Positions 1 through 19,019 of a stretch of DNA of 39,817 bases are shown piece after piece; the stretch's first letter is position 1; each line of letters starts with the position of its first letter. The notes beneath the pieces are model-generated. The model had not been told where the DNA came from. It did no database searches and saw only the letters and a list, made by a program, of their open reading frames with translations. Origin of the DNA: Escherichia phage TM1. The stretch lies in sequence record MT808983.1; one strand, 5' to 3'. Made by a program: the position numbers and the translations under genes.

Positions 1-179
1 TCACAGTTCAAGAACCTCAAGTCTCCCCATAGGCCCTCTTTTAGTCCAGACCAAAGGCCCTACCCCAGTCTATCATAAGGTGGGACCGATGGTCAAGACT
101 TCAGGTCAACGATAGGTTGAGGCTATGGCTGGAGGTCGGGACGATAGGTAGGGACTATGGGTCTGCCTCTAAGTCCCTA
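1..179. repeat. Left direct terminal repeat (DTR), identical to 39639-39817
   Basis: First 179 nt (tcacagttcaagaacctcaag...ctaagtcccta) recur at the extreme 3' end of the window; T7-like phages have terminally redundant linear genomes. Confidence 0.85.
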
Positions 180-215
180 TCTGTATAGTGTTATAGTATA
201 ACATTACGTCCTACA

Positions 216-299
216 CCTACAGTCTCACTAACCTACAGTCTCACTAACCTACAGTAACAACCATAAGACACTCACATCCTACAGTCATAGACCTACAGT
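216..299. repeat. Array of 5 copies of the octamer CCTACAGT just inside the left DTR
   Basis: CCTACAGT at 216-223, 232-239, 248-255, 278-285, 292-299; a matching array lies just inside the right DTR. T7 carries short-repeat arrays in and beside its terminal repeats. Confidence 0.7.
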
Positions 300-410
300 T
301 AATAGACACAAAGCTATAGACTTAAGGTCAAAGAAATGTTAGTCAAAGACTATATCCTCTTACACCATGAGGCCGACGATAGCTTAATCAATATTATTTC
401 AAATTACCTA

Positions 411-440
411 TTGACTATAGGTCTAGACTATGGCTTAATA
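411..440 (+). promoter_or_regulatory. Candidate host sigma70 early promoter (TTGACT, 17-18 nt spacer, TTAATA)
   Basis: TTGACT at 411-416 followed by an AT-rich -10-like hexamer; located in the non-coding early leader where T7 has promoters A1-A3. Judged by eye only. Confidence 0.3.
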
Positions 441-551
441 GCTTCCGTCAACACGACACGGCAACAACCGGATAGTGAAGACGCCGGGTCATCCCGGTTA
501 AGTAGACAGCCTGATAAGTCATACGAACAACAGGCAGATGACAGAAAGTAG

Positions 552-581
552 TTGACAAGATGTACCGACTTAAAGTAGTAT
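552..581 (+). promoter_or_regulatory. Candidate host sigma70 early promoter (TTGACA, 18 nt spacer, TAGTAT)
   Basis: Perfect -35 TTGACA at 552-557 and a -10-like TAGTAT at 576-581; the downstream context (cttaaagt) resembles T7 A-promoter regions. Confidence 0.35.
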
Positions 582-775
582 GTACCACATCAACACGAAA
601 CAACGGTGAGTCCCAACACTGAAACGGGATAGCACGGCGACGACAGCCAACGCAAATGCTCTTTAACAATCTGGATAAACTCTTAATGTGCGCCGATAGC
701 GACTAACTACAGGGTCTTTGAGTCTACATCTGAGGTCCCTGACTGATAGTCACTAACAACCTAAGAGGAATCATT

Positions 776-1057
776 ATGAGACTGAACAAAACTACGGCAG
801 AAGCCTTCCGCAAGGAGCTAGACTCAAGATTATTGCGTGGAGTGGAAGAAGAAGCAAAGCGCTATAAAGAGAATGGTCTAACGTTCAAACGATTTATGTG
901 GGATTGCTATCACGGGGTGGGTCATAAAAGGTCTCAGGAGATAATCACCAGCAACAATGCGGAAGTGCAAGTGATAGGAGGATATATGGCTAACGTGAAG
1001 GATTCTCACATAGAGACCATGCTTAAGAATGCACTTAAAGATGTAGCCTACGAGTGA
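776..1057 (+). CDS. Early protein of unknown function (93 aa), first early gene
   Basis: ATG at 776 preceded by AAGAGGAA; sits at the start of the early region upstream of the Ocr-like gene; no recognised motif. Confidence 0.6.
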   Translation: MRLNKTTAEAFRKELDSRLLRGVEEEAKRYKENGLTFKRFMWDCYHGVGHKRSQEIITSNNAEVQVIGGYMANVKDSHIETMLKNALKDVAYE

Positions 1058-1123
1058 TTAACTACAGGTCGTTAGCTTATAGCGGCCTGACTGATAGTCA
1101 CTAACAACTGAGAGGATATAACT

Positions 1124-1459
1124 ATGGAACGTAACGCTAACGCATACTATGACCTGCTGGCTGCAACTGTGAAAGCATTCAACGAGCGCATCCAGTACGA
1201 CCAACTGACTCAAGATGATGACTACTACGATGCACTGCATGAGGTTGTCGATGGAATGGTTCCGCACTATTACCACGAGATTTTCACGGTGATGGCCGCT
1301 GATGGTATAGACCACGAGTTCGAAGACTCTGGGCTGATGCCTGAGACCAAGGACGTAACGCGTATATTACAAGCTCGCATCTATGAGGCGCTTTACAACG
1401 ATGTGTCTAATAGCTCAGATGTGGTCTGGTTTGAGCCTACTGAGGAGGACTGCGAGTGA
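1124..1459 (+). CDS. ocr: Ocr-like anti-restriction DNA mimic (T7 gp0.3 homolog, 111 aa)
   Basis: Acidic protein containing [43 protein letters not shown], which closely matches the recalled core of T7 Ocr ([43 protein letters not shown]); SD GAGAGGA before the ATG. Confidence 0.85.
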   Translation: [111 protein letters not shown]

Positions 1460-1620
1460 TGGTAACTTATGGTCTCTGCCAGCACCACGTCACCAACGCC
1501 CGGCTTATGGTCAAGACCGGGCAGTTAAACCACGATGCGACTATGCGTTACCTGAAAGCGGTCTATGAGGGCCGCAAGCGAATACACGACAGCTTACACG
1601 CTGAGGACAAACCACAATGA
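1459..1620 (+). CDS. Small early ORF (53 aa), unknown function
   Basis: ATG overlaps the Ocr stop (TGATG); ends 1618-1620 overlapping the next start. Below the 60-aa cut-off of the supplied ORF track; supported only by tight gene packing. Confidence 0.35.
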   Translation: MVTYGLCQHHVTNARLMVKTGQLNHDATMRYLKAVYEGRKRIHDSLHAEDKPQ

Positions 1621-1808
1621 TAACTGAAGGTTCAATCATAGAATACAGATGTGACCACGGGTATATCCTGAAGGGTAAAGTAACGCAGGTATACACGTCT
1701 GTAACTGGTAAGCGATGCGTTGAGTTAACTAGCGGTGTGCGCTTAGGTCTGCATGAGTGTAGGCTGTTAAACGAGACGCAAGCGCCTACACGACAGCTTA
1801 CACACTGA
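1617..1808 (+). CDS. Small early protein (63 aa), unknown function
   Basis: ATG at 1617 preceded by the repeated leader ctgaggacaaaccacaATG; lies in the T7 gene 0.4-0.7 position. Confidence 0.5.
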   Translation: MITEGSIIEYRCDHGYILKGKVTQVYTSVTGKRCVELTSGVRLGLHECRLLNETQAPTRQLTH

Positions 1809-1820
1809 GGACAAGTAAAC

Positions 1821-1946
1821 ATGTACCAGATAACTTATAGCAGTGAACAGGCGTTCTACGATGGATGCTACGAGATGATGAAGCGCGGGGCTTGCTACGT
1901 GGCTAACCACCATAGCTTGACCATAACGCTGACAGGTGGATACTGA
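1821..1946 (+). CDS. Small early ORF (41 aa, MYQITYSSEQAFYDGCYEMMKRGACYVANHH...), unknown function
   Basis: ATG at 1821 preceded by a second copy of the repeated leader (ctgaggacaagtaaacATG); stop TGA at 1944-1946. Confidence 0.35.
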   Translation: MYQITYSSEQAFYDGCYEMMKRGACYVANHHSLTITLTGGY

Positions 1947-2103
1947 GTGATAAACGAGAGGTCATCTTTCTGATAGGTGGCCTCAAAGATTATCACTTAC
2001 ATTGATAGGGGTTAACTATGAGTATTGGACATTGGGTATGCCTAGCGCCAGTTATCTTGATGATAGGTTATGGGATATACGATTGTATTAAACGGAAATC
2101 ACT

Positions 2104-2301
2104 ATGAGTAGCGCACTATTGACAGCCATAGGCTATGGACTTATCGCCTACGTGCTGATGAGAGACATCAACAAGGCACGTAAAGTCTACAAATTCAACT
2201 ATGTACGTCTGGGTCGCTGGACTGTACGTCAACCTAACGGACGATTCATGCGTAACTTAGCGAACGTCTGGGATATAGCAACTCTTGGGAGCAAACTGTA
2301 A
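2104..2301 (+). CDS. Small early protein (65 aa) with hydrophobic N-terminus, unknown function
   Basis: ORF with N-terminal LLTAIGYGLIAYVLM hydrophobic stretch; weak RBS; stop overlaps the next start (TAATG). Confidence 0.45.
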   Translation: MSSALLTAIGYGLIAYVLMRDINKARKVYKFNYVRLGRWTVRQPNGRFMRNLANVWDIATLGSKL

Positions 2302-2561
2302 TGAAAACCGTATACACTCACAAATCATCAAGCCGTAGCCGCATGGAGCAAGCCCAGCGTGATATGTTCTTACATCGTCGAATGATGGCAGAGGGGCATG
2401 AGTCTGAGCTGATGTACCTGCTGTATGGTGGACGACCAATCACCGACGATGGTAAACTTCTGGTCTCAGGCTGGAAGGCGATATACCAACGGTCAACCAT
2501 CAAGCACACGACTCACGGTGACTTCAGCCATCTTCACGCTAACCAACTGATATGCAAGTAA
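2301..2561 (+). CDS. Early protein (86 aa), unknown function
   Basis: ATG overlaps the preceding stop; last early ORF before the RNAP gene. No kinase motifs, so it is not a T7 gp0.7 homolog. Confidence 0.5.
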   Translation: MKTVYTHKSSSRSRMEQAQRDMFLHRRMMAEGHESELMYLLYGGRPITDDGKLLVSGWKAIYQRSTIKHTTHGDFSHLHANQLICK

Positions 2562-2566
2562 TTCTG

Positions 2567-2590
2567 ACTTAACTATCACTATAGGACTCA
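2567..2590 (+). promoter_or_regulatory. Phage-RNAP promoter (ttaACTATCACTATAGGact) immediately upstream of the RNAP gene
   Basis: Matches the 11-member promoter family of this genome (core ACTATCACTATAGG); predicted +1 G at 2584. Confidence 0.7.
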
Positions 2591-2658
2591 AGGTCTAAGA
2601 CTCCAAGTGAAAGACCAAAGAGACTTTAAGTGAAAGACTAATAACAAGGACTTTAAGT

Positions 2659-5340
2659 ATGAGCGTCATCTCTATTGACAAACACGACTTCTCTGATGTG
2701 TCGAACGCCATTGAGCCGTTTAACCTGCTGGCTGACCACTACGGGCAAGACCTTGCAGTCAAGCAGCTTCAGCTTGAGCATGAGGCATACACTGAAGGCG
2801 AGCGACGTTTCATCAAGAACCTTGAGCGCCAGACCGAGCGCGGTGAGATGGCAGACAATCAGGTCGCCAAGCCTTTGATGCAGACTCTGGTCCCTAAGAT
2901 TGCGCAAGCCGTCAAGGAGTGGCATGAAGGCCCAGACGGGAAGCTGTCAACCTCTCGTCCTAGCGTAGCGTTCACCATGTTGAGCACTGAAGATAAGGCC
3001 GTCAAGGACCGCTCTCTGCGCATCTCCTGTGAGTCTGCTGCGGTTATCATACTGAAGGTCATCCTCTCCAAGCTGGTAAAGCCTGAAGGGATACCGATTA
3101 CACCTATGGCCTCCGCGATAGGTCGCACACTTGAAGATGAGATCCGCTTCGGTCGAATCAGAGACAAGGAGCAGGAGCACTTCAAGAAGGCGATAGCTGA
3201 TAACCTGAACAAGCGAGCTGGGGCATCCTATAAGAAAGCCTACATGCAAGCGGTTGAGACCTCCATGCTGGAGCAAGGTCAACTGGAAGATGCGTGGGGA
3301 ACTTGGAGTCCGACAGAGGCGGTACACGTTGGCATCAAGATGCTTGAGATTGTCATACAGTCTACACAACTGGTCGATATTAAGCGTTATGGTGCTGGCA
3401 ATGCAGCGGCTGATGTTGAGATGGTCCACCTGTCAGACTTCTGGGTCAAGAAGATGGCACAACGTGGGTTCAGCCTTGCGGGTATCGCACCAGTCTATCA
3501 GCCTTGCGTAGTTCCACCTAAGCCGTGGACGGGTGTCGTAGGCGGTGGGTACTGGGCCAAAGGTCGCAGACCGTTACCATTGATTCGCTTAGGGTCTAAG
3601 TCTGCGGTAGCACGTTACGAAGACGTGTACATGCCGGAAGTCTATGACGCTGTGAACATCATCCAGAATACACCTTGGAAAGTTAACAAGAAGGTTCTGG
3701 ACGTGGTGAACATGGTCGAGAAGCTGAACAACACGCCTATTGACGACATCCCTCAGATGGAGCCACTAAAGCCTGAGGACTATGCGGGTGAGACCGATGA
3801 AGAACTGAAGGCATGGAAGAAAGCTGCTGCTGGTATCTATCGACGCGAGAAGGCCAGACAGTCGCGCAGATTGTCACTGAGCTTTATCGTCAACCAAGCG
3901 AACAAGTTCTCTCAGTTCAAGGCCATCTGGTTTCCATACAACATGGATTGGCGAGGTCGTGTCTACGCTGTCCCGATGTTCAACCCTCAGGGTAACGACA
4001 TGCAGAAGGGTCTCCTGACTCTGGCAGTCGGCAAGCCTATTGGTGCTGACGGTTTCAAATGGCTGAAGGTACACGGTGCAAACTGCGCGGGTGTTGATAA
4101 AGTCACCTTCGAGGAGCGAATCAAGTGGGTGGAAGACAATCACGACAACATTATGGCTGCTGCTAAGGCACCGATGGATAGTATTGAGTGGTGGGGCAAG
4201 TTAGACTCTCCGTTCTGCTTCCTTGCGTTCTGCTTCGAGTATGCTGGCGTAATGCACCACGGCCTGTCTTACTCCTGCTCGCTGCCGATAGCGTTCGATG
4301 GGTCCTGCTCTGGTATTCAGCACTTCAGCGCGATGCTTCGTGACCACATCGGTGGACATGCAGTAAACCTAACTCCATCCGGCAAGGTTCAAGACATCTA
4401 CCGCATCGTGTCTGACCGCATCGCGGAGGAACTCAAAGTCCTGCTTGTTAACGGTACGGATAACGAGATGGTGACTCACGAGGACAAGAAAACTGGTGAG
4501 ATTACCGAACGTCTCAAGCTGGGGACACGAGAGCTGGCCCGTCAGTGGCTGACCTACGGTATGTCACGTAAGGTCACTAAGCGTTCGGTCATGACTCTGG
4601 CCTACGGGTCGAAAGAGTATGGCTTCGCAGACCAAGTATACGAGGACATCGTGATGCCAGCGATTGACTCAGGGTCTGGCGCTATGTTCACTGAACCAAG
4701 CCAAGCGTCTCGCTTCATGGCTAAGATGATTTGGGAAGCTGTGAGTGTGACCGTGGTTGCTGCGGTTGACGCGATGAAGTGGCTTCAAGGTGCTGCCAAG
4801 CTGCTGGCTGCTGAGGTGAAGGACAAGAAGACTGGAGAAATCCTGAAGCCTTGCCTTCCGGTACACTGGGTAACACCTGATGGTTTCCCGGTCTGGCAGG
4901 AATACCGCAAGAAGGATACAACCCGTCTGAACCTGATGTTCTTAGGGTCATTCAACCTTCAGCCTACAGTCAACAAAGGCACGAAGAAAGAGCTGGACAA
5001 GCACAAGCAGGAGTCAGGCATTAGCCCGAACTTCGTCCACTCACAAGATGGCAGCCACCTGCGGAAGACTGTAGTCCACACTCATCGCAAGTATGGCGTG
5101 ATGTCATTCGCAGTGATTCACGATAGCTTCGGGACCATCCCGGCTGACGCTGAGTATCTGTTCCGTGGTGTCCGTGAGACGATGGTAGAGACATACCGCG
5201 ACAACGATGTGCTGCTTGACTTCTACGAGCAGTTTGAATACCAGCTTCACGAGAGCCAGCGCGACAAGCTGCCTGAGCTTCCGAAGAAAGGTAAACTAAA
5301 TATCGAAGACATCTTGTCTTCAGACTTTGCATTCGCTTAA
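2659..5340 (+). CDS. gp1: Single-subunit DNA-directed RNA polymerase (T7 gp1 homolog, 893 aa)
   Basis: Collinear similarity to recalled T7 RNAP along the whole length (e.g. PYNMDWRGRVYAVPMFNPQGNDM, DGSCSGIQHFSAMLRD, HDSFGTIPADA, C-terminal SDFAFA). Confidence 0.97.
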   Translation: MSVISIDKHDFSDVSNAIEPFNLLADHYGQDLAVKQLQLEHEAYTEGERRFIKNLERQTERGEMADNQVAKPLMQTLVPKIAQAVKEWHEGPDGKLSTSRPSVAFTMLSTEDKAVKDRSLRISCESAAVIILKVILSKLVKPEGIPITPMASAIGRTLEDEIRFGRIRDKEQEHFKKAIADNLNKRAGASYKKAYMQAVETSMLEQGQLEDAWGTWSPTEAVHVGIKMLEIVIQSTQLVDIKRYGAGNAAADVEMVHLSDFWVKKMAQRGFSLAGIAPVYQPCVVPPKPWTGVVGGGYWAKGRRPLPLIRLGSKSAVARYEDVYMPEVYDAVNIIQNTPWKVNKKVLDVVNMVEKLNNTPIDDIPQMEPLKPEDYAGETDEELKAWKKAAAGIYRREKARQSRRLSLSFIVNQANKFSQFKAIWFPYNMDWRGRVYAVPMFNPQGNDMQKGLLTLAVGKPIGADGFKWLKVHGANCAGVDKVTFEERIKWVEDNHDNIMAAAKAPMDSIEWWGKLDSPFCFLAFCFEYAGVMHHGLSYSCSLPIAFDGSCSGIQHFSAMLRDHIGGHAVNLTPSGKVQDIYRIVSDRIAEELKVLLVNGTDNEMVTHEDKKTGEITERLKLGTRELARQWLTYGMSRKVTKRSVMTLAYGSKEYGFADQVYEDIVMPAIDSGSGAMFTEPSQASRFMAKMIWEAVSVTVVAAVDAMKWLQGAAKLLAAEVKDKKTGEILKPCLPVHWVTPDGFPVWQEYRKKDTTRLNLMFLGSFNLQPTVNKGTKKELDKHKQESGISPNFVHSQDGSHLRKTVVHTHRKYGVMSFAVIHDSFGTIPADAEYLFRGVRETMVETYRDNDVLLDFYEQFEYQLHESQRDKLPELPKKGKLNIEDILSSDFAFA

Positions 5341-5354
5341 CAGGAGAGAGAGTT

Positions 5355-5555
5355 ATGGAATTTGCACACAAGCAGACTGGCGTTAAGGGTGGTACTCAAA
5401 TCGTGACCGTAACAGAACACAACGGCAAGGGTCTGGTGAAGACCACTGTCATCCCTACCGAGATGTCAAAGCAGCTTAACGTCCAGTTCAAGTGGCTGGT
5501 TAAGCAGGTGGAGCAGACGCACGAGCAAGTCCTTAAAGAGGCGGCAACCAAATGA
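5355..5555 (+). CDS. Hypothetical protein (66 aa) between RNAP and gene 1.1
   Basis: ATG with SD AGGAGAGAG; T7 has no gene at this position. Confidence 0.5.
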   Translation: MEFAHKQTGVKGGTQIVTVTEHNGKGLVKTTVIPTEMSKQLNVQFKWLVKQVEQTHEQVLKEAATK

Positions 5556-5629
5556 CATACCTACAGTTACTGGCCCTGTGGCTGGGAGCACTAGCAGTAT
5601 TCACTCTAATCCAACGCAGAAGAGGTTAA
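5552..5629 (+). CDS. Possible small hydrophobic peptide (25 aa, MTYLQLLALWLGALAVFTLIQRRRG)
   Basis: ATG overlaps the upstream stop (ATGA); predicted single transmembrane helix followed by a basic tail; very short, so tentative. Confidence 0.2.
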   Translation: MTYLQLLALWLGALAVFTLIQRRRG

Positions 5630-5633
5630 CCAT

Positions 5634-6113
5634 ATGTTCGGTAAGTCAAAACTTAAGGCACAAATCAAAGAGTTGAGCATGAAGGTGGCATACTTGGAGC
5701 GAGTCGTAGAGGTCCGGGACAAGGACAACGAGCGGCTGAAGGTTAAACTTGCTGAATCAGAGCGTAAGCGCCTAACGCCACCAGCTGCTGTAACTGTCAA
5801 GCGTATGGTAGGCATCAAGTTCAAGGCTCTATTCAACGGTATGTACCAACCGGCTGAGTTCAAGACTGGGCCGGGTAACTGTGGGAAGAACGTTAAGCAC
5901 TTCACCATCTCGAAGACTGAACGCACACTGACCATCCACCAGCACCACATAGACGGGTCTCAGAAAGACTTTGAGTACCGACTGAGCGACATCGACGGTA
6001 GAATCCAGTATGACTATGAGCTGGTTAAGGTATACGGTGAGGAGGCTGAACAGGAACGTATAGTCCAAGCCTTCCGCAACAGACACGATTCGTACCCTAA
6101 ACTATCACTATAG
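5634..6113 (+). CDS. Hypothetical protein (159 aa) with coiled-coil-like N-terminus, accessory gene
   Basis: ATG with SD GAAGAGG; its stop codon TAG lies inside the following phage promoter; no recognised motif. Confidence 0.6.
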   Translation: MFGKSKLKAQIKELSMKVAYLERVVEVRDKDNERLKVKLAESERKRLTPPAAVTVKRMVGIKFKALFNGMYQPAEFKTGPGNCGKNVKHFTISKTERTLTIHQHHIDGSQKDFEYRLSDIDGRIQYDYELVKVYGEEAEQERIVQAFRNRHDSYPKLSL

Positions 6114-6119
6114 GATTAG
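6096..6119 (+). promoter_or_regulatory. Phage-RNAP promoter (taaACTATCACTATAGGatt), phi1.1 position
   Basis: Family consensus; predicted +1 G at 6113; overlaps the 3' end of the upstream ORF. Confidence 0.8.
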
Positions 6120-6160
6120 ACTCAAGGTCATGACTCAAAGTCGTGGCCTTCATGATTAAC
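6118..6160 (+). ncRNA. Conserved leader hairpin, candidate RNase III processing site (R1.1 position)
   Basis: agactcaaggtcatgactcaaagtcgtggccttcatgattaa; one of three copies of a conserved AGACTCAAGGTCAT...GGCCTTTATGATTA element. Confidence 0.5.
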
Positions 6161-6195
6161 CCTAACCTAACGTAAACTACTGGAGATTTAACAAC

Positions 6196-6375
6196 ATGTA
6201 TCAGAACACTATCAACTTCGAGCGCATCCGTGAACGTCAACAGACTGAAGATTATATTCCGAAGGGCCGCAAGCTGAACAAGACCAAGCGTGGCGGTGGT
6301 GTCAAGGGTGCTTTCCGTAACGCTGAAGGCAAAGACTCTCTGGTCAACCAAGAGAAATACTTCGTAGGAGCATAA
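6196..6375 (+). CDS. gp1.1: gp1.1-like small basic protein (59 aa)
   Basis: Contains GRKLNKTKRGGG, matching the GRKLNKTKR motif recalled from T7 gp1.1; position after RNAP and the phi1.1 promoter. Confidence 0.7.
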   Translation: MYQNTINFERIRERQQTEDYIPKGRKLNKTKRGGGVKGAFRNAEGKDSLVNQEKYFVGA

Positions 6376-6378
6376 GCC

Positions 6379-6630
6379 ATGAGTAAACGTTGGTTATTCG
6401 ACGCATCACCGAGCCAGTGGTCATCGTTAGGCCGGACCCACAGAGAGATGAGCGAGGCAGGACTTGAGGTCAGAATGGATGACCTGCCGTGCTCCGGAAA
6501 GACTCTGGTCCAAATCATTGAAGCAGACGATGGGAGGATTCTGGTCACGCGCAAATTTAACGAACACGAAATCTTTAGCTGTGAGCAATGGTGCTTGCAG
6601 CAACTGAATGCTTACAGGAGCTGGAAATAA
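6379..6630 (+). CDS. gp1.2: gp1.2-like protein (83 aa; the T7 homolog is a dGTPase inhibitor)
   Basis: Position between gp1.1 and ligase, similar length and C-terminal WK as recalled for T7 gp1.2; internal similarity is weak. Confidence 0.55.
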   Translation: MSKRWLFDASPSQWSSLGRTHREMSEAGLEVRMDDLPCSGKTLVQIIEADDGRILVTRKFNEHEIFSCEQWCLQQLNAYRSWK

Positions 6631-7670
6631 TGACAACTATCAAGACTAACCCTCACCGCGCTGTAGACTACTCTGAGTCTGGCGTTAAGAAAGCGCTCGA
6701 AGCTGCCGGGTCACTGGAAGCTGAAGTGAAGTATGACGGTGTGCGGTTGAACCTTCCGGTGCTGCGAGAGGGTGAGACTTATTGGTTAAGCCGTGAGTCG
6801 AAACCTCTGCCTGCCTTGGAGTGGATGAACTCTGAGCTAGGTAATGCGTGGACCCAAGCTGACTGGCGATGGTTCCTGCGGCAAGCTGGATACGAAGGTG
6901 TGGGCCTGATGATCGATGGCGAGGTCATGATCAAAGGTGTGGACTTCAACACCTCCTCAGGTCTCATCCGAACGAAGTGGCTCAAGCCTAACAATGAGGA
7001 GGTCGCTGAATGCTATCCGGGCCGTGGCAAGAAGGTCCCGTTCTTGGTCTCCCGGTCACGACTTCAGGTTGTGGTATATGGCGTTGTCGATATGACAACC
7101 ATAGCAGACCCGAAAGCCGAAGGTCCTATCCATAGCGTCACACGCCTGAAGGCCGAAGCCATCGTCCCTCTCCTCCAGAAATACTTCCCGGAAATCGACT
7201 GGGTATTATCTGAGAGTCATACAGTGTATGACCTTGAGTCGCTCAACTCCCTGTACGAAGAGAAGCGTCTGGAAGGACACGAGGGTCTGGTAGTCAAGGA
7301 CCCACTTGGTAAATACAAGCGTGGCAAGAAGTCAGGCATGTGGAAAATGAAGCCTGAGGAGACAATCGACGGGACAGTGTGTGGCCTCGTGTGGGGGACT
7401 CCGGGTAAGGCTAACGAAGGTAAGGTGATTGGCTTTGAGGTGCTGCTTGAGGATGGCATGGTGGTTAATGCTTGTGGTCTGACTGAAGAACAGAAGGATG
7501 AGTTTACGGAAGCCTGTAACACTGATACATATATTCTCGGTGGAATCAATCCATACGAAGGCTGGCAGTGTGAAGTCCTTTTCATGGAGCGGTTCCCTGA
7601 TGGCTCACTCCGTCACCCTAGCTTCAAGTGCTGGCGAGGGACGGAAGACAACCCGACCGTTAAGAGTTAA
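6630..7670 (+). CDS. gp1.3: ATP-dependent DNA ligase (T7 gp1.3 homolog)
   Basis: MTTIKTNPHRAV...EVKYDGVR (KxDG adenylation motif) ...GHEGLVVKDP...KRGKKSGMWKMKPE...SLRHPSF, collinear with T7 ligase; start taken at ATG 6630 (T7-like MxxIKTNP) rather than the upstream alternative start in the ORF track. Confidence 0.92.
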   Translation: MTTIKTNPHRAVDYSESGVKKALEAAGSLEAEVKYDGVRLNLPVLREGETYWLSRESKPLPALEWMNSELGNAWTQADWRWFLRQAGYEGVGLMIDGEVMIKGVDFNTSSGLIRTKWLKPNNEEVAECYPGRGKKVPFLVSRSRLQVVVYGVVDMTTIADPKAEGPIHSVTRLKAEAIVPLLQKYFPEIDWVLSESHTVYDLESLNSLYEEKRLEGHEGLVVKDPLGKYKRGKKSGMWKMKPEETIDGTVCGLVWGTPGKANEGKVIGFEVLLEDGMVVNACGLTEEQKDEFTEACNTDTYILGGINPYEGWQCEVLFMERFPDGSLRHPSFKCWRGTEDNPTVKS

Positions 7671-7678
7671 CTAAACGT

Positions 7679-7720
7679 CAACCCAGTGGTCTTCGGACTG
7701 CTGGGTTTCTTTGCTTTATG
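7679..7720 (+). terminator. Rho-independent terminator, analog of T7 early terminator TE
   Basis: GC-rich hairpin (aacccagtggtcttcggactgctgggtt) followed by a T-rich tract tctttgcttt directly after ligase, where T7 has TE. Confidence 0.7.
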
Positions 7721-7753
7721 CTAGCAAGCTATCGTCTGGTCAACCAGCCTGAC

Positions 7754-7777
7754 CCTAAGCTATCACTATAGGACAAC
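7754..7777 (+). promoter_or_regulatory. Phage-RNAP promoter (taagCTATCACTATAGGaca)
   Basis: Family consensus with one upstream substitution; predicted +1 G at 7771. Confidence 0.7.
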
Positions 7778-7803
7778 CATAACTTCGACCTAAGGAGGCC
7801 GAC

Positions 7804-8064
7804 ATGTTTAAGAACTTAATGTTCAACCGTTATACCAGTACCTTCCACCTGTCCCACAACCCGTTCGCTTGCATTAAGCGCAACGAGAAGCTGGGATACT
7901 TCGGGAAGGCCGTTAAGCTGTCACCTACAGTCTTCGCTCTGATTACTCCGGGCAAAGCTGAAGAGGCTCGCCAGAAGCGTGAGACCAACGTACCTGTGGT
8001 CTACACTAAGTGGCCCCGCGTTCGTCTGTTCGTTGAGCTCGTGAAGGAGGTGGTAAATGGTTAA
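7804..8064 (+). CDS. Class II hypothetical protein (86 aa)
   Basis: Strong SD (AAGGAGG) before ATG 7804; first gene after the TE-like terminator. Confidence 0.6.
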   Translation: MFKNLMFNRYTSTFHLSHNPFACIKRNEKLGYFGKAVKLSPTVFALITPGKAEEARQKRETNVPVVYTKWPRVRLFVELVKEVVNG

Positions 8065-8392
8065 GCACAAGGAGTGGTGCCGCTGGGTCCTTAGGTTCGG
8101 TTCGTGCGACTGCGGCGCTGTTACCATCATCCCCGCCCCGAGCAGTAAAGATGACGGGGTACGCAAGCCATCCCACTATCAGGTCTTTGATGGCGTGGAA
8201 TCCATTGAGATTATCGCCCGGTCCATGACTGTCAGTGAGTTCCGTGGTTTCTGCATGGGTAACGTCCTGAAGTATCGACTCCGAGCTGGTAAGAAGTCAG
8301 AGCTGGCGACTATGGAGAAGGACCTGAACAAAGCAGCCTTCTATCAGGAGCTGTTCGACCTGCATAAAGGTAAGTGCTATGCTGCCGAGTGA
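8057..8392 (+). CDS. Hypothetical protein (111 aa); tentatively related to the C-terminal region of T7 gp1.7 nucleotide kinase (DUF3310-like)
   Basis: SD GGAGG before the ATG; motif NVLKYRLRAGKK...DLNKAAFY recalled as typical of the DUF3310/gp1.7 family. The assignment is from memory and unverified. Confidence 0.55.
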   Translation: MVKHKEWCRWVLRFGSCDCGAVTIIPAPSSKDDGVRKPSHYQVFDGVESIEIIARSMTVSEFRGFCMGNVLKYRLRAGKKSELATMEKDLNKAAFYQELFDLHKGKCYAAE

Positions 8393-8470
8393 GTGGTGCC
8401 TGGAGATGTACGAGAAGACTCTCAACCCGGACTACATTACGTTATACAACCAATGGAAGGAGCGTGGTTT

Positions 8471-8629
8471 ATGACTGAGGTTGAGAAGAAATACATCGTG
8501 GAGCTTGAGGGTCGCGTTCAGTCCTTCGAGGTTCCGGTGTACGCAAAGTCTCTTGAAGAGGCTGCCCTGAAGTCCCAAGAGTATGAGGACGCTGGGTTTG
8601 TGGTCGGACGGATTCGTCCTGAGACCTAA
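8471..8629 (+). CDS. gp2: gp2-like inhibitor of host RNA polymerase (52 aa)
   Basis: [33 protein letters not shown] parallels T7 Gp2 ([34 protein letters not shown]); start placed at ATG 8471 with SD AGGAGCG rather than the upstream alternative start. Confidence 0.75.
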
Positions 8630-8648
8630 ACTATCACTGTAGGACAGA
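8625..8648 (+). promoter_or_regulatory. Phage-RNAP promoter variant (taaACTATCACTgTAGGaca)
   Basis: Family consensus with A to G at -3; precedes the SSB gene. Confidence 0.6.
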
Positions 8649-8686
8649 CGTCCAGTTCGTAACTTTAAAATAGGAGATTTACACCG

Positions 8687-9385
8687 ATGGCTAAAGAGCA
8701 ACTGAAGACTTTCACCACTCCGGTAGCTGGTATCGTTGAGCCTTACGCATGGCTGAACAAAGCAGACACCAAGTTTAACGAGCGTGGTGAGCATAAGGTT
8801 AACCTGACATTCGACCTGAGCAACCCGAAGGTCCGTAAGATGATTGATGTCTTACAGAAGATTCACGACGATGCGTATGCGAAAGCACTCGCAGACCACG
8901 AGAAGAACCCACCTCAGGTTCAGCGTGGCAAGAAGCCTATTGAACCACGAGAAGGCGACATGCCGTGGATTGAGAATGGTGACGGTACTGTTACCCTGAA
9001 GTTCAAATGCTTTGCGTCTTACCTTAAAGACGGCAAGTCCGAGCCTATCGTATTACGGTTCTACGGCACTGATGCTAAACTCATCCGTGACGTCCCGAAT
9101 ATTGGCGCTGGGTCTAAGCTGAAGGTCAAGTTTAAAGTCCTGCCGTTCAAGTGGAACGCTGCGACTGGTGCAAGCGTTAAGCTCCAGCTTGAGTCCTGCC
9201 TTCTGGTAGAGCTGAAGGAGTGGAAAGGTGATGGTGCTGGTGGTGATGGTGGCTGGGGTGATGATGAAGACCTCGGTACTGGCTACAAAGCGTCAACCGA
9301 TGGTGACTTCGGGTCTGATGACTTCGGTGACGATGGCTCCGATGGCGCTGACGACTCTAACTCTGGTGGCGATTACGACTTCTAA
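8687..9385 (+). CDS. gp2.5: Single-stranded DNA-binding protein (T7 gp2.5 homolog, 232 aa)
   Basis: MAKEQ...GDMPWIENGDGTVTLKFKC...GSKLKVKFKVLPFKWNAATGASVKLQLESCLLVEL, with an acidic C-terminal tail ending DYDF, as in T7 gp2.5. Confidence 0.92.
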   Translation: MAKEQLKTFTTPVAGIVEPYAWLNKADTKFNERGEHKVNLTFDLSNPKVRKMIDVLQKIHDDAYAKALADHEKNPPQVQRGKKPIEPREGDMPWIENGDGTVTLKFKCFASYLKDGKSEPIVLRFYGTDAKLIRDVPNIGAGSKLKVKFKVLPFKWNAATGASVKLQLESCLLVELKEWKGDGAGGDGGWGDDEDLGTGYKASTDGDFGSDDFGDDGSDGADDSNSGGDYDF

Positions 9386-9831
9386 TGAAACTTAAAGAGA
9401 AACTGGAGGTTTACTCTGAGGTTTCTCCTACTGGGTGCTGGGAGTGGCAACTCTCCCGGTTCCCTGCTGGATATGGTCGAATATCAATAGGACGTCAGAA
9501 ACAGGACTACGCTCACCGAGTTTCATACAGGGAGTACAAAGGTCCGATACCTGATGGATTGGTTGTTAGACATAAATGTGATAACCCCTGCTGCTGTAAC
9601 CCTGAGCACCTTGAATTAGGTACGCAGAAGGACAACATGAGGGACTGCATGGAGAGAGGACGAAAGTCCAACCCTCCCGTATTCAAAGGAGAAGCTAATC
9701 ATAAGACTAAGCTGACCAAGGAAAACGTAGAGTTCATCTTAGAGTCGATGCTGCCAGCTACAGAACTAGCCAAGATGTTTGGAGTCACACCAGCAGCTAT
9801 AAACTGGAGGAGACAACATGGCTGGACGTAG
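9385..9831 (+). CDS. HNH homing endonuclease (148 aa)
   Basis: H-N-H core HRVSYREY...VVRHKCDNPCCCNPEHLELGTQKDN; ATG overlaps the SSB stop (TAATG). Confidence 0.85.
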   Translation: MKLKEKLEVYSEVSPTGCWEWQLSRFPAGYGRISIGRQKQDYAHRVSYREYKGPIPDGLVVRHKCDNPCCCNPEHLELGTQKDNMRDCMERGRKSNPPVFKGEANHKTKLTKENVEFILESMLPATELAKMFGVTPAAINWRRQHGWT

Positions 9832-10270
9832 CATAAGCAGAGGACATCAAGTAGGGGCCTACCGCTCAGGACTTGAAGCAAAGAACCAAGAGTGGCTTGA
9901 GAAGAACGGCGTGAAGGCTGAATACGAGGCTTATAAAATAGGCTACGTAGTACCGTCCAGCGACCATTTCTACACGCCAGACTTTGTGTTGCCTAACGGT
10001 ATCATCGTGGAGACCAAAGGTATCTTCGATAGTGATGACCGTAAGAAGCACCTTCTGGTACGAGAACAGCACCCAGAGTTAGACATTCGGTTCGTGTTCT
10101 CAAGTTCCCGCTCCAAGTTATACAAAGGGTCTCCGACCACGTATGGCGCATGGTGCGAAAAGAACGGCTATAAGTATGCCGATAAGTTCATCCCGGTTGA
10201 GTGGCTTCGAGAGGCGACTGTACGTCTGCCTTCGGGCATACTCATCCCCAAGAAGAAAGGAGTTAAGTAA
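9818..10270 (+). CDS. gp3: Endonuclease I, Holliday-junction resolvase (T7 gp3 homolog)
   Basis: AYRSGLEAKNQEWLEKNG...YTPDFVLPNGIIVETKG...DDRKKHLLVREQHPELDIRFVFSSSRSKLYKGSPTTYG, collinear with T7 gp3. Confidence 0.92.
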   Translation: MAGRSISRGHQVGAYRSGLEAKNQEWLEKNGVKAEYEAYKIGYVVPSSDHFYTPDFVLPNGIIVETKGIFDSDDRKKHLLVREQHPELDIRFVFSSSRSKLYKGSPTTYGAWCEKNGYKYADKFIPVEWLREATVRLPSGILIPKKKGVK

Positions 10271-10725
10271 TGACTACCTGTAAAGACCTTGAAGTTGGAA
10301 CACGTTACAGATTCTCAAAGAACACCCTGCTGAATAACCCCGGATTCACTGATGCTGTTTTCGAAAAGCGAGAAGACCATAGCGTACTTGTGGAGAAGGG
10401 GTGGCATCCTGAGGATTACATCGGTGAGATTACAAGCTGGAATGGTCACGATACCTACAGTGTAGAAGTTGTTGACCAGCCTCAGGTCCTGCCAGCTTCG
10501 AGCGTACCACCTGTGACTGTGAAGCGTGAAGTCCTGACCATCGACAAGATTGGTGTAGGCCAGACGTTCATCGTCCACGGAAAGCCTGAAGAAGTTTACG
10601 TGAAGATTAGCAACTCACACGTCTTCAACCATAAGCGTCTCCAGATGCACACCACGGACGCACAACGCTTCACCCAGCACCTGAATCTGGTGGTCGTAGA
10701 ATTGGTGGTGTACAATGGTAAGTAA
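10270..10725 (+). CDS. Hypothetical protein (151 aa) between endonuclease I and lysozyme
   Basis: SD AAGGAG; start and stop overlap the neighbours; no counterpart at this position in T7. Confidence 0.6.
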   Translation: MTTCKDLEVGTRYRFSKNTLLNNPGFTDAVFEKREDHSVLVEKGWHPEDYIGEITSWNGHDTYSVEVVDQPQVLPASSVPPVTVKREVLTIDKIGVGQTFIVHGKPEEVYVKISNSHVFNHKRLQMHTTDAQRFTQHLNLVVVELVVYNGK

Positions 10726-11173
10726 GGTACAGTTCAACCCACGGTCCCGGACTGACGCTATCTTCGTTCACTGTTCGGCTACCAAGCCAGATATGGACAT
10801 CGGGGTAGAGACCATCCGTATGTGGCACAAGCAGCAAGGATGGCTGGACGTAGGCTACCACTTTATCATCAAGCGCGATGGTACTGTGGAAGAGGGTCGC
10901 CCGGTCAATGTCGTAGGGTCACATGTTAAGGACTGGAACTCAAAGTCCGTAGGCGTCTGCCTTGTAGGTGGAATCAACGCTAAGGGTCAGTTTGAAGCTA
11001 ACTTCACTCCAGCCCAGATGAACTCCCTTCGCAACAAGCTGGCTGACCTGAAGGCCTTGTATCCTCAGGCAGAAATCAAAGCACACCATGACGTAGCACC
11101 TAAGGCGTGTCCAAGTTTCGACTTGCAACGCTGGTTGACTACCAACGAACTGATCACTTCCGACAACGGTTAA
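10715..11173 (+). CDS. gp3.5: N-acetylmuramoyl-L-alanine amidase / T7 lysozyme homolog (gp3.5)
   Basis: VQFNPRSRTDAIFVHCSATKP...WLDVGYHFIIKRDGTVEEGR...AHHDVAPKACPSFDL, near-collinear with T7 lysozyme. Confidence 0.93.
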   Translation: MVSKVQFNPRSRTDAIFVHCSATKPDMDIGVETIRMWHKQQGWLDVGYHFIIKRDGTVEEGRPVNVVGSHVKDWNSKSVGVCLVGGINAKGQFEANFTPAQMNSLRNKLADLKALYPQAEIKAHHDVAPKACPSFDLQRWLTTNELITSDNG

Positions 11174-11197
11174 TAAATTCTAAAGGAGAACAACTCA

Positions 11198-11413
11198 ATG
11201 ATTAAACTTATCGAATTTCTTGGTCGTCTGGTGGTGCGTGGTTATCGTCGTGCTGCGGTACTGGAACGAAAGGTAGAAAAGAAGAATGCTGACGGTGCGA
11301 CTGATGCTGCTGCTCTGGCTGACAAGCTGACCATCGCGTCACTGGAAGCTGGCATGAAGGCACGTCAAGCTGACACCAAAGCTGACCAGTTGGCTCAGTT
11401 CTTCAAAGCCTAA
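11198..11413 (+). CDS. Small alanine-rich protein (71 aa), unknown function
   Basis: Strong SD AAAGGAGAA; its stop codon TAA lies inside the next promoter. Confidence 0.55.
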   Translation: MIKLIEFLGRLVVRGYRRAAVLERKVEKKNADGATDAAALADKLTIASLEAGMKARQADTKADQLAQFFKA

Positions 11414-11431
11414 ACTATCACCTTAGGGATG
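11408..11431 (+). promoter_or_regulatory. Phage-RNAP promoter variant (taaACTATCACcTtAGGGat)
   Basis: Two substitutions in the -4/-3 region; upstream of the tRNA-like element and the primase-helicase gene; probably weaker. Confidence 0.45.
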
Positions 11432-11476
11432 GGACCATGAGTCCTTTCCCTTTGTTCGCATTTGTGATTAAGAAAT

Positions 11477-11555
11477 GTCTCCATAGCTCAAACGGTAGAG
11501 CGGCGGGTCATGATGGCCTATTGCGATTAGGGTTCGAATCCCCGTGGAGACGCCA
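11477..11555 (+). tRNA. tRNA-like element (possible degenerate tRNA, candidate anticodon CAT; anticodon arm ambiguous)
   Basis: Perfect 7-bp acceptor stem (gtctcca/tggagac), T8, D-arm gctc-aaacggta-gagc with GG, T-loop GGTTCGAATCC, discriminator G and encoded CCA; but 26 nt between the D- and T-arms with imperfect anticodon stem pairing. Confidence 0.4.
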
Positions 11556-11566
11556 ATAAGGAGTGA

Positions 11567-13270
<1,704 letters not shown>

Positions 13271-13281
13271 GGAGGAGTACA

Positions 13282-13446
13282 TTGCTAAGAAAACTTAAAG
13301 CTCGCTACCATCGGTTCATGTACAAATGGTGGAGTGATGAAGCAACCTGCCTGTCCAACATTCTGGGAGACCAGAGGTTCTACTCTAAGGCATGGAAGAA
13401 AGCTAACCGGAAGTTTATGTATCACTTCTTGCGTACAGACTTCTAG
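13282..13446 (+). CDS. Small basic protein (about 54 aa), unknown function
   Basis: TTG start 7 nt after AGGAGG (alternative GTG at 13249, as in the ORF track); lies between the helicase and DNA polymerase genes. Confidence 0.35.
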   Translation: MLRKLKARYHRFMYKWWSDEATCLSNILGDQRFYSKAWKKANRKFMYHFLRTDF

Positions 13447-13450
13447 GTCT

Positions 13451-13498
13451 AGACTCAAGGTCATTCACATCGATTGGCCTTTATGATTAGACTAAACG
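13451..13498 (+). ncRNA. Conserved leader hairpin, candidate RNase III site (R4.7 position, upstream of DNA polymerase)
   Basis: agactcaaggtcattcacatcgattggcctttatgattagact; second copy of the conserved element. Confidence 0.5.
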
Positions 13499-13510
13499 CG
13501 GAGGATTAAC

Positions 13511-15679: not shown

Positions 15680-15688
15680 GGAGGTAAG

Positions 15689-16003
15689 ATGGGAGGTGTA
15701 GCAACCTTACGCTTCCATAAGATGCCTACTGGATGTATCGTCTGTGTATCTCACAAGAGGAACCAAGATGGATACTTTCGGTACACGGTAGGATCTGCCC
15801 GTAAGCCAGGACGCAAGGCGTTTATGTTTCACCGATGGGTGTGGGAACAGAAGCGCGGGCCTATACCAGATGGCTATGAGATAGACCATTTGTGTTTGAA
15901 TCGTGGGTGCTGTAACGTAGAGCATCTGCAATGTATTCCAAAGCGTGAGCACGTCATCAAGACGAACCGTGAGCGCAAACTTGTCAAGAAGGAGTGTCAC
16001 TAA
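15689..16003 (+). CDS. HNH homing endonuclease (104 aa)
   Basis: FHRWVWEQ...IDHLCLNRGCCNVEHLQCIPKREH (H-N-H motif); SD AAGGAGG; occupies the T7 gene 5.3 position. Confidence 0.85.
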   Translation: MGGVATLRFHKMPTGCIVCVSHKRNQDGYFRYTVGSARKPGRKAFMFHRWVWEQKRGPIPDGYEIDHLCLNRGCCNVEHLQCIPKREHVIKTNRERKLVKKECH

Positions 16004-16320
16004 TGGCTATGACAAAACGTATGCGAGTTTCGTTCTCGCTGTGTACTGTATTATCAACTAAAGACATCGAGGGCCTCAATGGGGCTCTCTGCAAGCTGAG
16101 TCGTAAGGTTCTGAACGGAGAGAAGACCACTGGCTTCGAGCGTAAGATGGTAGAGGTAGGTGTTACAGAGGGTATGGAAGCTGTGGTAGAGCTTGTCTTA
16201 AAGAAAGGCATTGTTGACGGGCTGAAAGAAGATCTTACGTCCTACTCAAATAAGCCCAGCTTCGGAGATTTCAGAGTGGAGTTCAAGCTATCTCCTGCTA
16301 CTGTACGGGAGGTGTTCTAA
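16003..16320 (+). CDS. gp5.5-like protein (105 aa)
   Basis: Starts MAMTKR, as recalled for T7 gp5.5; position after DNA polymerase and HNH; ATG overlaps the upstream stop. Confidence 0.55.
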   Translation: MAMTKRMRVSFSLCTVLSTKDIEGLNGALCKLSRKVLNGEKTTGFERKMVEVGVTEGMEAVVELVLKKGIVDGLKEDLTSYSNKPSFGDFRVEFKLSPATVREVF

Positions 16321-16439
16321 TGGCTATCAAGCGTATCAAGAATAAGAAGGAGTGCGACCACTCTTTCGTAGTTAAAGGTGTCATTGGTTTTGCTGCCGAG
16401 AGTGTATTAAATGTGGATATTTTGAGGTTCAAGCAATGA
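16320..16439 (+). CDS. Small ORF (39 aa), unknown
   Basis: SD GGGAGGTG 7 nt upstream; ATG overlaps the previous stop (TAATG); very short. Confidence 0.3.
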   Translation: MAIKRIKNKKECDHSFVVKGVIGFAAESVLNVDILRFKQ

Positions 16440-16645
16440 GTGAATACTTACGGGTCCTAGCGGCCCTTAAGTCCTGCCCGAAGACATTTCAGTCCAACTA
16501 TGTGCGCAACAACGCTGCACTTGTGGCTGAGGCTGCGAGTCGTGGACATCTAAGCTGCCTGTCTATGGATGGGCGTAACAACGGTGCGTGGGAGATTACC
16601 GCTGCTGGCACCAAGTTCCTGAACCAACACGGAGGCTGTCTATGA
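16436..16645 (+). CDS. gp5.7: gp5.7-like protein (69 aa)
   Basis: MSEYLRVLAALKSCPKTFQSNYVRNNAALVAEAASRGHLSC...GAWEITAAGTKFL, near-identical in pattern to recalled T7 gp5.7. Confidence 0.85.
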   Translation: MSEYLRVLAALKSCPKTFQSNYVRNNAALVAEAASRGHLSCLSMDGRNNGAWEITAAGTKFLNQHGGCL

Positions 16646-16770
16646 GCCTGAAAGGTCTATTTGCATCTAGGTTAAAGTGTAAAAAGTGTGGACAACATCC
16701 TATGCTGGAGGGATATGCTGGCAGCTCATACTGGTGGTGTCTCAAATGCAACAAGGAGGTGAAAGAATGA
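16642..16770 (+). CDS. Small zinc-ribbon-like protein (42 aa, CxxC...CxxC)
   Basis: MSLKGLFASRLKCKKCGQHPMLEGYAGSSYWWCLKCNKEVKE; SD GGAGG; overlaps its neighbours by 4 nt at each end. Confidence 0.45.
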   Translation: MSLKGLFASRLKCKKCGQHPMLEGYAGSSYWWCLKCNKEVKE

Positions 16771-17636: not shown

Positions 17637-17710
17637 TCTACTGGGCCGGACTTCTGGCCCTTTACTGCATGTACAAGTGGTTCGGGTCGAACAACCGTCC
17701 TAAACACTGA
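17618..17710 (+). CDS. gp6.3-like small membrane peptide (30 aa)
   Basis: GTG start 7 nt after AAGGAGG; VIYWAGLLALYCMYKW resembles the hydrophobic T7 gp6.3 as recalled. Confidence 0.35.
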   Translation: MDTIHVIYWAGLLALYCMYKWFGSNNRPKH

Positions 17711-17762
17711 GTCTAACCGATAGTCATATCCTATCAATCCAACAGTCATCCATAGGTGAAAC

Positions 17763-17786
17763 ACTAAACTATCACTATAGGGACTT
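17763..17786 (+). promoter_or_regulatory. Phage-RNAP promoter (taaACTATCACTATAGGGac), phi6.5 position
   Basis: Family consensus; predicted +1 G at 17780. Confidence 0.8.
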
Positions 17787-17846
17787 TAGGACCTAAGATA
17801 TGACTATAAGATAGACTTTAGTCTTAACTTAAAGAGGAGATTCAAG

Positions 17847-18119: not shown

Positions 18120-18133
18120 CTGTAGGAGGGACT

Positions 18134-18358: not shown

Positions 18359-18362
18359 GACA

Positions 18363-19008: not shown

Positions 19009-19019
19009 GGAGGTGACGA

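Follow-up and report, generated by a model that had tools for sequence, protein, structure and literature searches.

We analyzed the early region of Escherichia phage TM1 (sequence record MT808983.1), in particular the small genes at positions 776 to 2,561 that surround ocr and precede the gene for the phage RNA polymerase. The whole stretch of 39,817 nucleotides (nt) is referred to as the window, and all coordinates are those of the window. By sequence comparison, the 39.8-kb window is assigned as a complete T7-like phage genome and as a near-species-level new member of the K1F genus (Kayfunavirus). This placement follows from the identities of both early region and core genome to Kayfunavirus records: bases 1–2700 matched 425 phage records by megablast, with the best matches being Kayfunavirus at 88–91% identity (TM1, LS2, Vec13 and several "Kayfunavirus" isolates), and the core genome (2659–27000) matches pO91, P762 and ST31 at about 94% identity along about 93% of its length. 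The following genes were predicted, with product lengths in amino acids (aa):

776–1057, plus strand: 93-aa accessory early gene (phrog_9817, PHROG E 4.3e-27)
1124–1459, plus strand: ocr (gp0.3), DNA-mimic anti-restriction protein (Pfam ocr, PF08684, E 1.7e-30)
1459–1620, plus strand: 53-aa Gp0.4-family protein of the K1F gp0.35 type (PF26807 in homologs, PHROG cross-matches, hhalign, AlphaFold2 model, position)
1617–1808, plus strand: 63-aa accessory gene, weak match to phrog_14219, 47 phage records
1821–1946, plus strand: gene for a 41-aa protein under extreme purifying selection
2018–2107, plus strand: gene for a 29-aa single-pass membrane micropeptide, conserved in 14 of 20 loci (window and 13 relatives)
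2104–2301, plus strand: gene for a 65-aa membrane-anchored protein of the K1F gp0.37 type (phrog_2385, PHROG E 2.8e-31)
2301–2561, plus strand: gene for an 86-aa K1F gp0.38-type protein (phrog_7066, PHROG E 1.9e-39)
2659–5340, plus strand: gene 1, T7-like single-subunit RNA polymerase (893-aa open reading frame), the right-hand limit of the region

Apart from the 29-aa gene, the open reading frames (ORFs) before gene 1 are those of the ORF listing, in which ocr encodes 111 aa and the ORF ending at 1620 begins at 1456 or 1459. A sequence-only reading of the same DNA had named six small ORFs, and all of them were reproduced, including the start at 1459. Its Ocr homolog was confirmed as well (105.9 bits against a PF08684 cut-off of 25; 50% identity to T7 gp0.3). 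Its list was incomplete, missing the conserved 29-aa ORF at 2018–2107, and its statement that none of the small genes is recognizable did not hold, with 1459–1620 falling into the Phage_T7_GP04 family and 2104–2301 being a homolog of T3 gene 0.6. For gene 1, the RPOL_N and RNA_pol Pfam domains were seen at neighboring loci.

Layout was compared across 20 loci, consisting of the window and 19 related early regions. The Kayfunavirus backbone runs from ocr and gp0.35 through the 41-aa gene, which is often present, and a variable slot to the 29-aa gene, gp0.37, gp0.38 and gene 1. The order ocr, gp0.35, slot, gp0.37, gp0.38, phage promoter and gene 1 characterizes this backbone, which is present in 17 of the 19 related loci; of the two exceptions, one has no gp0.37 and the other only a gp0.37 fragment. 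Occupants of the slot are gp0.36, a 115-aa gene or a 244-aa kinase; elsewhere it is empty. Judged by these loci, the layout is the standard early region for Kayfunavirus and no peculiarity of the TM1 window. K1F-like phages normally have an early region without the kinase, and the small genes have already been catalogued as hypothetical proteins. ORFs 776, 1617 and 1821 would be accessory cassettes added to a T7/T3-like gene order, with the genus-specific gp0.38 gene adjoining gene 1.

Coding potential of the small reading frames

ORFs of 29–93 aa are common by chance. Coding was therefore tested by ortholog comparison, using pooled Nei–Gojobori ratios of nonsynonymous to synonymous change (dN/dS) against 2–18 distinct orthologs per ORF from related phages. 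Values of 0.10 (776), 0.12 (ocr), 0.23 (1459), 0.017 (1821), 0.21 (2018), 0.32 (2104) and 0.34 (2301) were obtained, with 0.08 for the N-terminus of the RNA polymerase as a reference and 0.81 for a control ORF at 336–551. ORF 1617 had no ortholog in the 20 loci; 47 tblastn matches to it were found in phage genomes. Shine-Dalgarno (SD)-like sequences or stop/start overlaps precede all ORFs of the region, the overlaps read in the sequence being TGATG (1457–1461), ATGA (1617–1620 and 2104–2107) and TAATG (2299–2303).

On the strength of low dN/dS, SD sequences and stop/start overlaps, the small early ORFs are taken to be real genes. That they were genuine early genes had been presumed in the sequence-only reading, and this presumption is borne out by dN/dS of 0.017–0.34 wherever testable, by the translation signals and by conservation across hundreds of genomes. 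It is scarcely credible that they are chance open frames. Although similar-length antisense ORFs occur in the same region, every testable ORF has a dN/dS well below 1 as opposed to the control, and starts, SD sequences and coupling overlaps are conserved. All ORFs except the 29-aa one could be assigned to existing PHROG families.

The control ORF itself encodes 71 aa and is annotated as gp0.1 in K1F (phrog_30192). It shows only 5% synonymous divergence and overlaps the promoter-rich left end. The stretch 336–551 looks like conserved regulatory DNA rather than a protein gene.

A Gp0.4-family protein next to ocr

The product of 1459–1620 is assigned to the Gp0.4 family (Phage_T7_GP04) as a diverged member, based on domain annotation, profile comparison, predicted structure and gene position. 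PF26807 is precomputed in all 89 homologs, which are 60–96% identical to the window protein, and is also found on 57 gp0.4 proteins of the T7 type, among them a T7 'truncated protein 0.4'. The T7-type gp0.4 profile additionally retrieves a Rahnella phage "putative host cell division inhibitor" carrying PF26807. The PHROG matches cross over, with the window protein matching phrog_5058 and weakly phrog_7202, and T7 gp0.4 matching phrog_7202 and weakly phrog_5058. Direct comparison with T7 gp0.4 by BLASTP gave 39% identity over 41 residues. When the K1F-type and T7-type subfamilies were compared via hhalign, a probability of 95.5% was obtained (E 1.4e-8, 42 columns), while three unrelated small-protein families reached at most 0.3% and 20 column shuffles at most 4.5%. 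Sequences bridging the two types were found in Klebsiella, Dickeya, Foetvirus and Rahnella phages, where the gene directly follows Ocr or SAMase.

Gene position is in agreement with this assignment. All orthologs begin with MVTYGL, and the start is therefore likely ATG 1459 rather than GTG 1456. One base is common to this ATG and the ocr stop codon, an overlap also seen between T7 0.4 and 0.3 (1278). The AlphaFold2 model (pLDDT 84.9) consists of helices at residues 8–20 and 25–48 joined by a 4-residue turn (DSSP), and T7 Gp0.4 is made up of two antiparallel helices (PMC13423816). A Foldseek search of BFVD with the model returned family members and unnamed small T7-like phage proteins, which agrees with the assignment but for a two-helix fold is not decisive.

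A related arrangement was observed in Klebsiella phage vB_Kpn_K74_evo4 (locus L039), which carries two adjacent Gp0.4-like genes at 1492–1841. The first is of the K1F type and 51% identical to the window protein, and the second small ORF begins MKRYGITQQ. This pair may represent a tandem duplication of the division-inhibitor gene.

Putative FtsZ and CapRel faces of gp0.35

T7 Gp0.4 binds the synergy-loop face of FtsZ, and the substitutions V15A, V22A, W28A, M32A, L35A and Y39A each abolish its toxicity; for W28L and W28A, loss of both toxicity and FtsZ binding has been described. A second set of residues, A12, T14, L16, S19 and R23, contacts the immune sensor CapRel-Ebc (PMC13423816). We compared these positions in an alignment of 89 K1F-type and 56 T7-type proteins. 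V15, V22, M32, L35 and Y39 are identical in the window and retained in 77–89 of the 89 K1F-type sequences. At each of the five CapRel-contact positions the K1F type has a different residue, namely Q, H, T, R and K. With five of the six FtsZ-face residues kept and the CapRel-face residues replaced, the protein is probably an FtsZ-binding division inhibitor, and K1F-type gp0.35 is probably not sensed by CapRel-Ebc. The 53-aa helical hairpin would bind FtsZ monomers at the face used by T7 Gp0.4 and would block Z-ring assembly in this way. The conserved FtsZ face and replaced CapRel face predict that K1F-like phages escape CapRel-Ebc sensing.

This assignment bears on an unexplained phenotype. Infection by K1F results in multi-ring filaments and FtsZ mislocalization, the responsible factor having been left unidentified; according to the 2022 study, gene 0.4 is missing from K1F, BLAST gave no similarity and the inhibitor must be novel (PMC9372555). 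Since K1F gp0.35 (MVTYGLCQHH...) belongs to the Gp0.4 family, it is the obvious candidate, and K1F-type gp0.35 probably is the "unknown" K1F division inhibitor. The assignment directly provides a cheaply testable candidate for the K1F FtsZ phenotype.

The position of W28 calls for caution. It is occupied by His in 85 of 89 K1F-type proteins and likewise in the Klebsiella, Dickeya and Foetvirus relatives, and because W28 is required in T7 Gp0.4, FtsZ binding by gp0.35 should not be taken for granted. The K1F-type relative might have changed its target or lost FtsZ binding, with division being blocked by another K1F protein. The loss of activity in T7 W28L and W28A (PMC13423816) and the low identity of the gp0.35 type to T7 Gp0.4 (about 30–39%) would fit such a change. 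We nevertheless find it rather improbable, given that the other five FtsZ-contact positions are conserved in both types while the opposite face is not, that K1F does mislocalize FtsZ (PMC9372555), and that gp0.35 is the only recognizable division-inhibitor candidate in the K1F early region. The near invariance of His at this position further suggests a retained contact, not decay.

Putative promoters and processing sites

Four signals were assigned in and around the region:

552–581, plus strand: sigma-70-type promoter-like site (TTGACA, 18 nt, TAGTAT), 10 of 12 consensus matches
1053–1102, plus strand: hairpin with internal loop resembling an RNase III site, −23 kcal/mol, z −3.9, just upstream of ocr
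1944–1999, plus strand: second RNase III-site-like hairpin, −25.5 kcal/mol, z −4.1, stability reached by none of 200 shuffles
2570–2586, plus strand: phage RNA polymerase promoter consensus TAACTATCACTATAGGA, exact motif match, between gp0.38 and gene 1

The site at 552–581 corresponds in position to the A1–A3 promoters annotated in T7 and T3 and is likely the early promoter driving the operon. The hairpin at 1053–1102 is the positional equivalent of R0.3 in T7 and T3, being found at the same relative place as the R0.3 annotated in T3. The hairpin at 1944–1999 has the same architecture, fills most of the apparent gap at 1947–2017 and lies where T3 annotates R0.5, of which it is the positional equivalent. 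Host RNA polymerase would transcribe the operon rightwards from near 552–581, the polycistronic RNA would probably be cut at both hairpins, as suggested by their structure and position, and translation would be partly coupled through the stop/start overlaps. No Rfam match was found in 1–6600.

The window contains 10 close copies of the motif at 2570–2586, with no more than 2 mismatches, compared with 0.08 expected, and the motif is located before gene 1 in most Kayfunavirus loci checked, K1F included. A promoter at this place would let the phage polymerase boost its own gene. Just downstream, at 2598–2641, the 5' leader of gene 1 contains two 21-nt copies in tandem (AGACTCCAAGTGAAAGACCAA and AGACTTTAAGTGAAAGACTAA). 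Several direct copies of a CCTACAGTCTCACTAA-like unit were seen on reading the sequence at 215–300, near the left genome end.

We read 776–2561 as the class I (early) operon from a K1F-like phage, kinase-less and with a probable Gp0.4-type FtsZ inhibitor, and put the probability of this reading at roughly 80%. Besides the His at the W28 position, a number of points weigh against this reading. The T7-type profile alone missed the K1F-type proteins in a large database search restricted to candidates with exact 5-residue words in common, and PF26807 membership of the window protein rests on its homologs at 60–96% identity. Taken over all sites, the promoter scan showed no enrichment relative to shuffles, leaving 552–581 as a consensus match, and the RNase III sites are assigned by structure and position match. 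Lastly, five of the seven small genes (776, 1617, 1821, 2018 and 2301) could not be given a function.

The missing kinase

The absence of a gp0.7-like kinase, which the sequence-only reading had noticed for the early region, was borne out for the whole window. Neither T7 gp0.7 (359 aa) nor the 244-aa Kayfunavirus kinase gave a tblastn match at E≤1 in any of the six frames, and the kinase is therefore absent from the entire genome and not just from the early segment. Among the early ORFs no PHROG kinase match (phrog_2828, phrog_15752) was found. Kinase-less phages are the majority in the genus, because gp0.38 occurs in about 218 phage records compared with about 48 for the genus-type kinase (at least 60% identity). 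About one fifth of the relatives carry the 244-aa kinase in the slot that is vacant in the window. Most of the genus, including K1F (as read from its two GenBank annotations), is without the kinase, and its absence is not a lesion of the window phage.

A recent deletion in the window phage, with the interval 1947–2017 as its scar, is very unlikely. The 244-aa kinase of vB_VIPECLMC06 does sit exactly between the 41-aa and 29-aa genes, in the interval vacant in the window. That interval, however, holds the intact and very stable hairpin (z −4.1) and not a remnant, tblastn detected no kinase fragments in the window, and K1F and most relatives are kinase-less too, their slot holding gp0.36, the 115-aa gene or nothing.

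The T7 kinase has been presented as a broad anti-defence factor (PMC13645617, PMC12345140). The Kayfunavirus kinase (phrog_15752; SFPH2, Dev2, vB_VIPECLMC06) consists of a kinase domain only, matching profile positions 45–225 of 366, and is without the C-terminal shut-off domain of T7 gp0.7. In the window, tblastn detected homologs of Gp2, Gp5.5 and Gp5.7 downstream (5340–20000) but none of T7 genes 1.2, 1.4, 1.5, 4.3, 4.5, 4.7, 5.3, 5.9, 6.3 and 7. Host transcription shut-off would presumably proceed via the Gp2 and Gp5.7 homologs further right. HNH-endonuclease-like sequences were seen at 9385–9804 and 36418–36720.

In vB_VIPECLMC06, gp0.38, the 41-aa gene and the 29-aa gene co-occur with the kinase. 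None of the early genes without assigned role is complementary to it in distribution, and nothing in these comparisons indicates that one of them substitutes for the kinase. Kinase-plus and kinase-minus Kayfunaviruses on one backbone represent a ready comparison set for the value of the kinase to the phage. One name may be shared by two phages: KX689784 (KX689784.2, Escherichia phage JSS1) is a kinase-less Kayfunavirus, and the JSS1 of the Dnd and kinase papers is described with a full kinase and shut-off protein, JSS1_004.

Other small genes

Sequence searches of Pfam, NCBIfam and PDB yielded no usable match for the small ORFs of the region. ORF 1821, encoding the 41-aa protein, is the most intriguing of the remaining early genes. 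With 24% synonymous differences, its orthologs show almost no amino-acid change. Identity is at least 99% in 40 of 111 phage records, the exact sequence occurs in 261 blocks of public assemblies, and the product is identical in phages isolated on Escherichia, Salmonella, Enterobacter, Citrobacter and Morganella. Its C-terminal motif LTITLTGGY persists in distant Rahnella and Klebsiella phage homologs.

The 29-aa ORF is unannotated in phage TM1. Each of the 14 copies has an ATG, an SD sequence and a stop codon that overlaps or abuts the gp0.37 start (ATGA or TAATG). The product consists of a hydrophobic core (Kyte-Doolittle 1.78) followed by KRKSL.

ORF 2104, the next gene, is a homolog of T3 gene 0.6, which matched it at about 40–42% identity over 60 aa (tblastn against the window, E 3e-6). 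Hydrophobic residues span positions 3–19, and the gp0.37 family is found in 575 phage records across Studiervirinae. Homology of ORF 2104 to the MreB inhibitor Gp0.6 of T7 (0.6A) was rejected (hhalign 0.2%), the resemblance being limited to 13 C-terminal residues (KxNKxGxxYxxTH).

The gp0.38 family is essentially confined to Kayfunavirus. No Pfam domain was found among 110 homologs and no relative in PDB. About 65 aa at the C-terminal end form a conserved core, and the N-terminus varies, so that lengths range from 83 to 139 aa. The AlphaFold2 model (46-sequence alignment, pLDDT 54) was too poor for fold comparison. The 108-aa forms (e.g. L002, 3029–3355) start with MNKSYGINQVH..., which is similar to a Gp0.4-type N-terminus (41% over 17 aa, E 0.09), and the 86-aa window protein is without this extension. 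We also considered gp0.38 as a kinase relic or stand-alone shut-off domain and rejected this idea: hhalign gave 0.1% against the T7, T3, JA10 and Sarma103 kinases, hmmsearch E values were 0.07 or higher, and the gene co-occurs with the kinase.

The ORF 776 family comprises 61 phage records, including T7-like phages of Yersinia, Klebsiella and Serratia at 50–60% identity. An exhaustive HMMER search among 1.84 billion representatives returned only 10 similarly sized clusters and a single spurious protein of 2129 aa. No match was found in Pfam, NCBIfam or PDB, DUF5680 being hit only weakly (E 0.08). A 50-nt direct repeat at 738–787 and 1086–1135, identical over its first 23 nt, places the 3' half of a hairpin and a ribosome binding site (RBS) before both ORF 776 and ocr. 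Its presence before both genes suggests that ORF 776 may have been added by duplication of, or recombination at, an R0.3-type site.

ORF 1617 is likewise bracketed by a repeat:

1573–1610, plus strand: 38-nt direct repeat, copy 1, 92% identical to copy 2, 204 nt apart
1777–1814, plus strand: 38-nt direct repeat, copy 2, supplying the last ORF 1617 codons in another reading frame

Among the 20 Kayfunavirus loci the cassette is present in the window only, and this pattern fits insertion by recombination at a conserved gene end plus RBS. If the end of ORF 1617 is read from the repeat, Salmonella orthologs are expected to match residues 1–53 of 63 only, and Salmonella Kayfunaviruses are indeed 89% identical over residues 1–53. 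Further relatives occur in Klebsiella T7-like phages (40–47%) and in 87-kb E. coli/Shigella phages (mistaenkt, SUSP2, CHB7; 38–47%), and in Klebsiella phage RCIP0028 the homolog directly follows a Gp0.4-like gene. The ORF 1617 gene is mobile among phage groups. A Sushi/CCP domain was rejected for its product: the PDB matches were summed sub-threshold repeats with 0 significant stretches, and no Pfam Sushi match was found at E≤1. Cys12 is not kept in a Klebsiella phage homolog, which also argues against Sushi/CCP and the complement-receptor matches.

The sequence-only reading had put the small ORFs forward as candidates for new inhibitors acting on host defence, division or transcription. The expectation of host-takeover functions is reasonable and 1459–1620 is a probable division inhibitor, but the families are not new, being already catalogued in PHROG or as K1F genes. 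In the stronger form, that such new inhibitors compensate for the missing kinase, we consider the proposal unlikely. ORFs 776, 1617, 1821, 2018 and 2301 show no detectable similarity to proteins of known function, the dN/dS of 0.017 for ORF 1821 is what a protein tied to a conserved target in the host should show, and gp0.38 evolves faster with a variable N-terminus, a pattern of arms-race proteins; the anti-defence role of the T7 kinase (PMC13645617) implies that kinase-less phages may need substitutes. Set against this, two of the ORFs (1459 and 2104) have recognizable relatives, the distribution is not complementary as seen in vB_VIPECLMC06, and no direct evidence for anti-defence activity of the small ORFs was found. 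Overall, the proposal is partly supported, with one gene of probable known function (division inhibition), one of known family and five that are conserved without an assigned role.

A more far-reaching combination can be formulated, which we also consider unlikely. The His-type Gp0.4 may keep its FtsZ face with the whole CapRel-read face replaced. Alongside this, either the invariant 41-aa protein or gp0.38 may serve as a new factor in host takeover or anti-defence, allowing most of the genus to dispense with the broad-spectrum T7 kinase. If true, His-type Gp0.4 would be a phage effector that escapes guard-type immunity without losing function.

Comparison with K1F, T7 and T3

K1F (NC_007636) carries 0.3, 0.35, 0.36, 0.37, 0.38 and gene 1 in the order and orientation shared with the window, with a phage promoter just before gene 1 and no kinase in either. 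Identities to the window proteins are 80% for gp0.35, 92% for gp0.37 and 83% for gp0.38. The two regions differ in their accessory genes: K1F gp0.2 and gp0.36 are absent from the window, whereas ORF 776, ORF 1617 and the 41-aa ORF 1821 are cassettes not present in K1F, where no match to the 29-aa ORF 2018 was found either. Further, Ocr comprises 111 aa in the window and 169 aa in K1F.

The T7 early region is colinear with the window in the sequence of anti-restriction gene, Gp0.4-type gene, RNase III hairpin, membrane peptide, 0.6-position gene and RNA polymerase. The 29-aa gene is likened to T7 gene 0.5 by position only. T7 possesses the 0.7 kinase/shut-off gene, while the window is without it and has extra cassettes and gp0.38. 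In the annotations of T7 and T3, gene 1 is preceded only by an E. coli promoter and an RNase III site, in contrast to the phage promoter of the window. The 0.6-position gene of the window follows the T3 type, and no relationship to T7 0.6A was detectable. T3 gp0.6 and the ORF 2104 product both comprise 65 aa with an N-terminal hydrophobic segment and share the motif TVR.PNGRF; in ORF 2104 the middle segment is 5 residues shorter and the C-terminus differs (IATLGSKL vs IATH).

The likeness to T7 Gp0.4 combines divergence in sequence with agreement in architecture. Identity is about 30–39%, Trp28 is replaced by His and all five CapRel-Ebc contacts are changed. At the same time, both proteins belong to the same Pfam family, are about 50 aa long, form two helices and are encoded by a gene starting on the last base of 0.3, and they share V15, V22, M32, L35 and Y39 as well as the YGL and LK..Y motifs.

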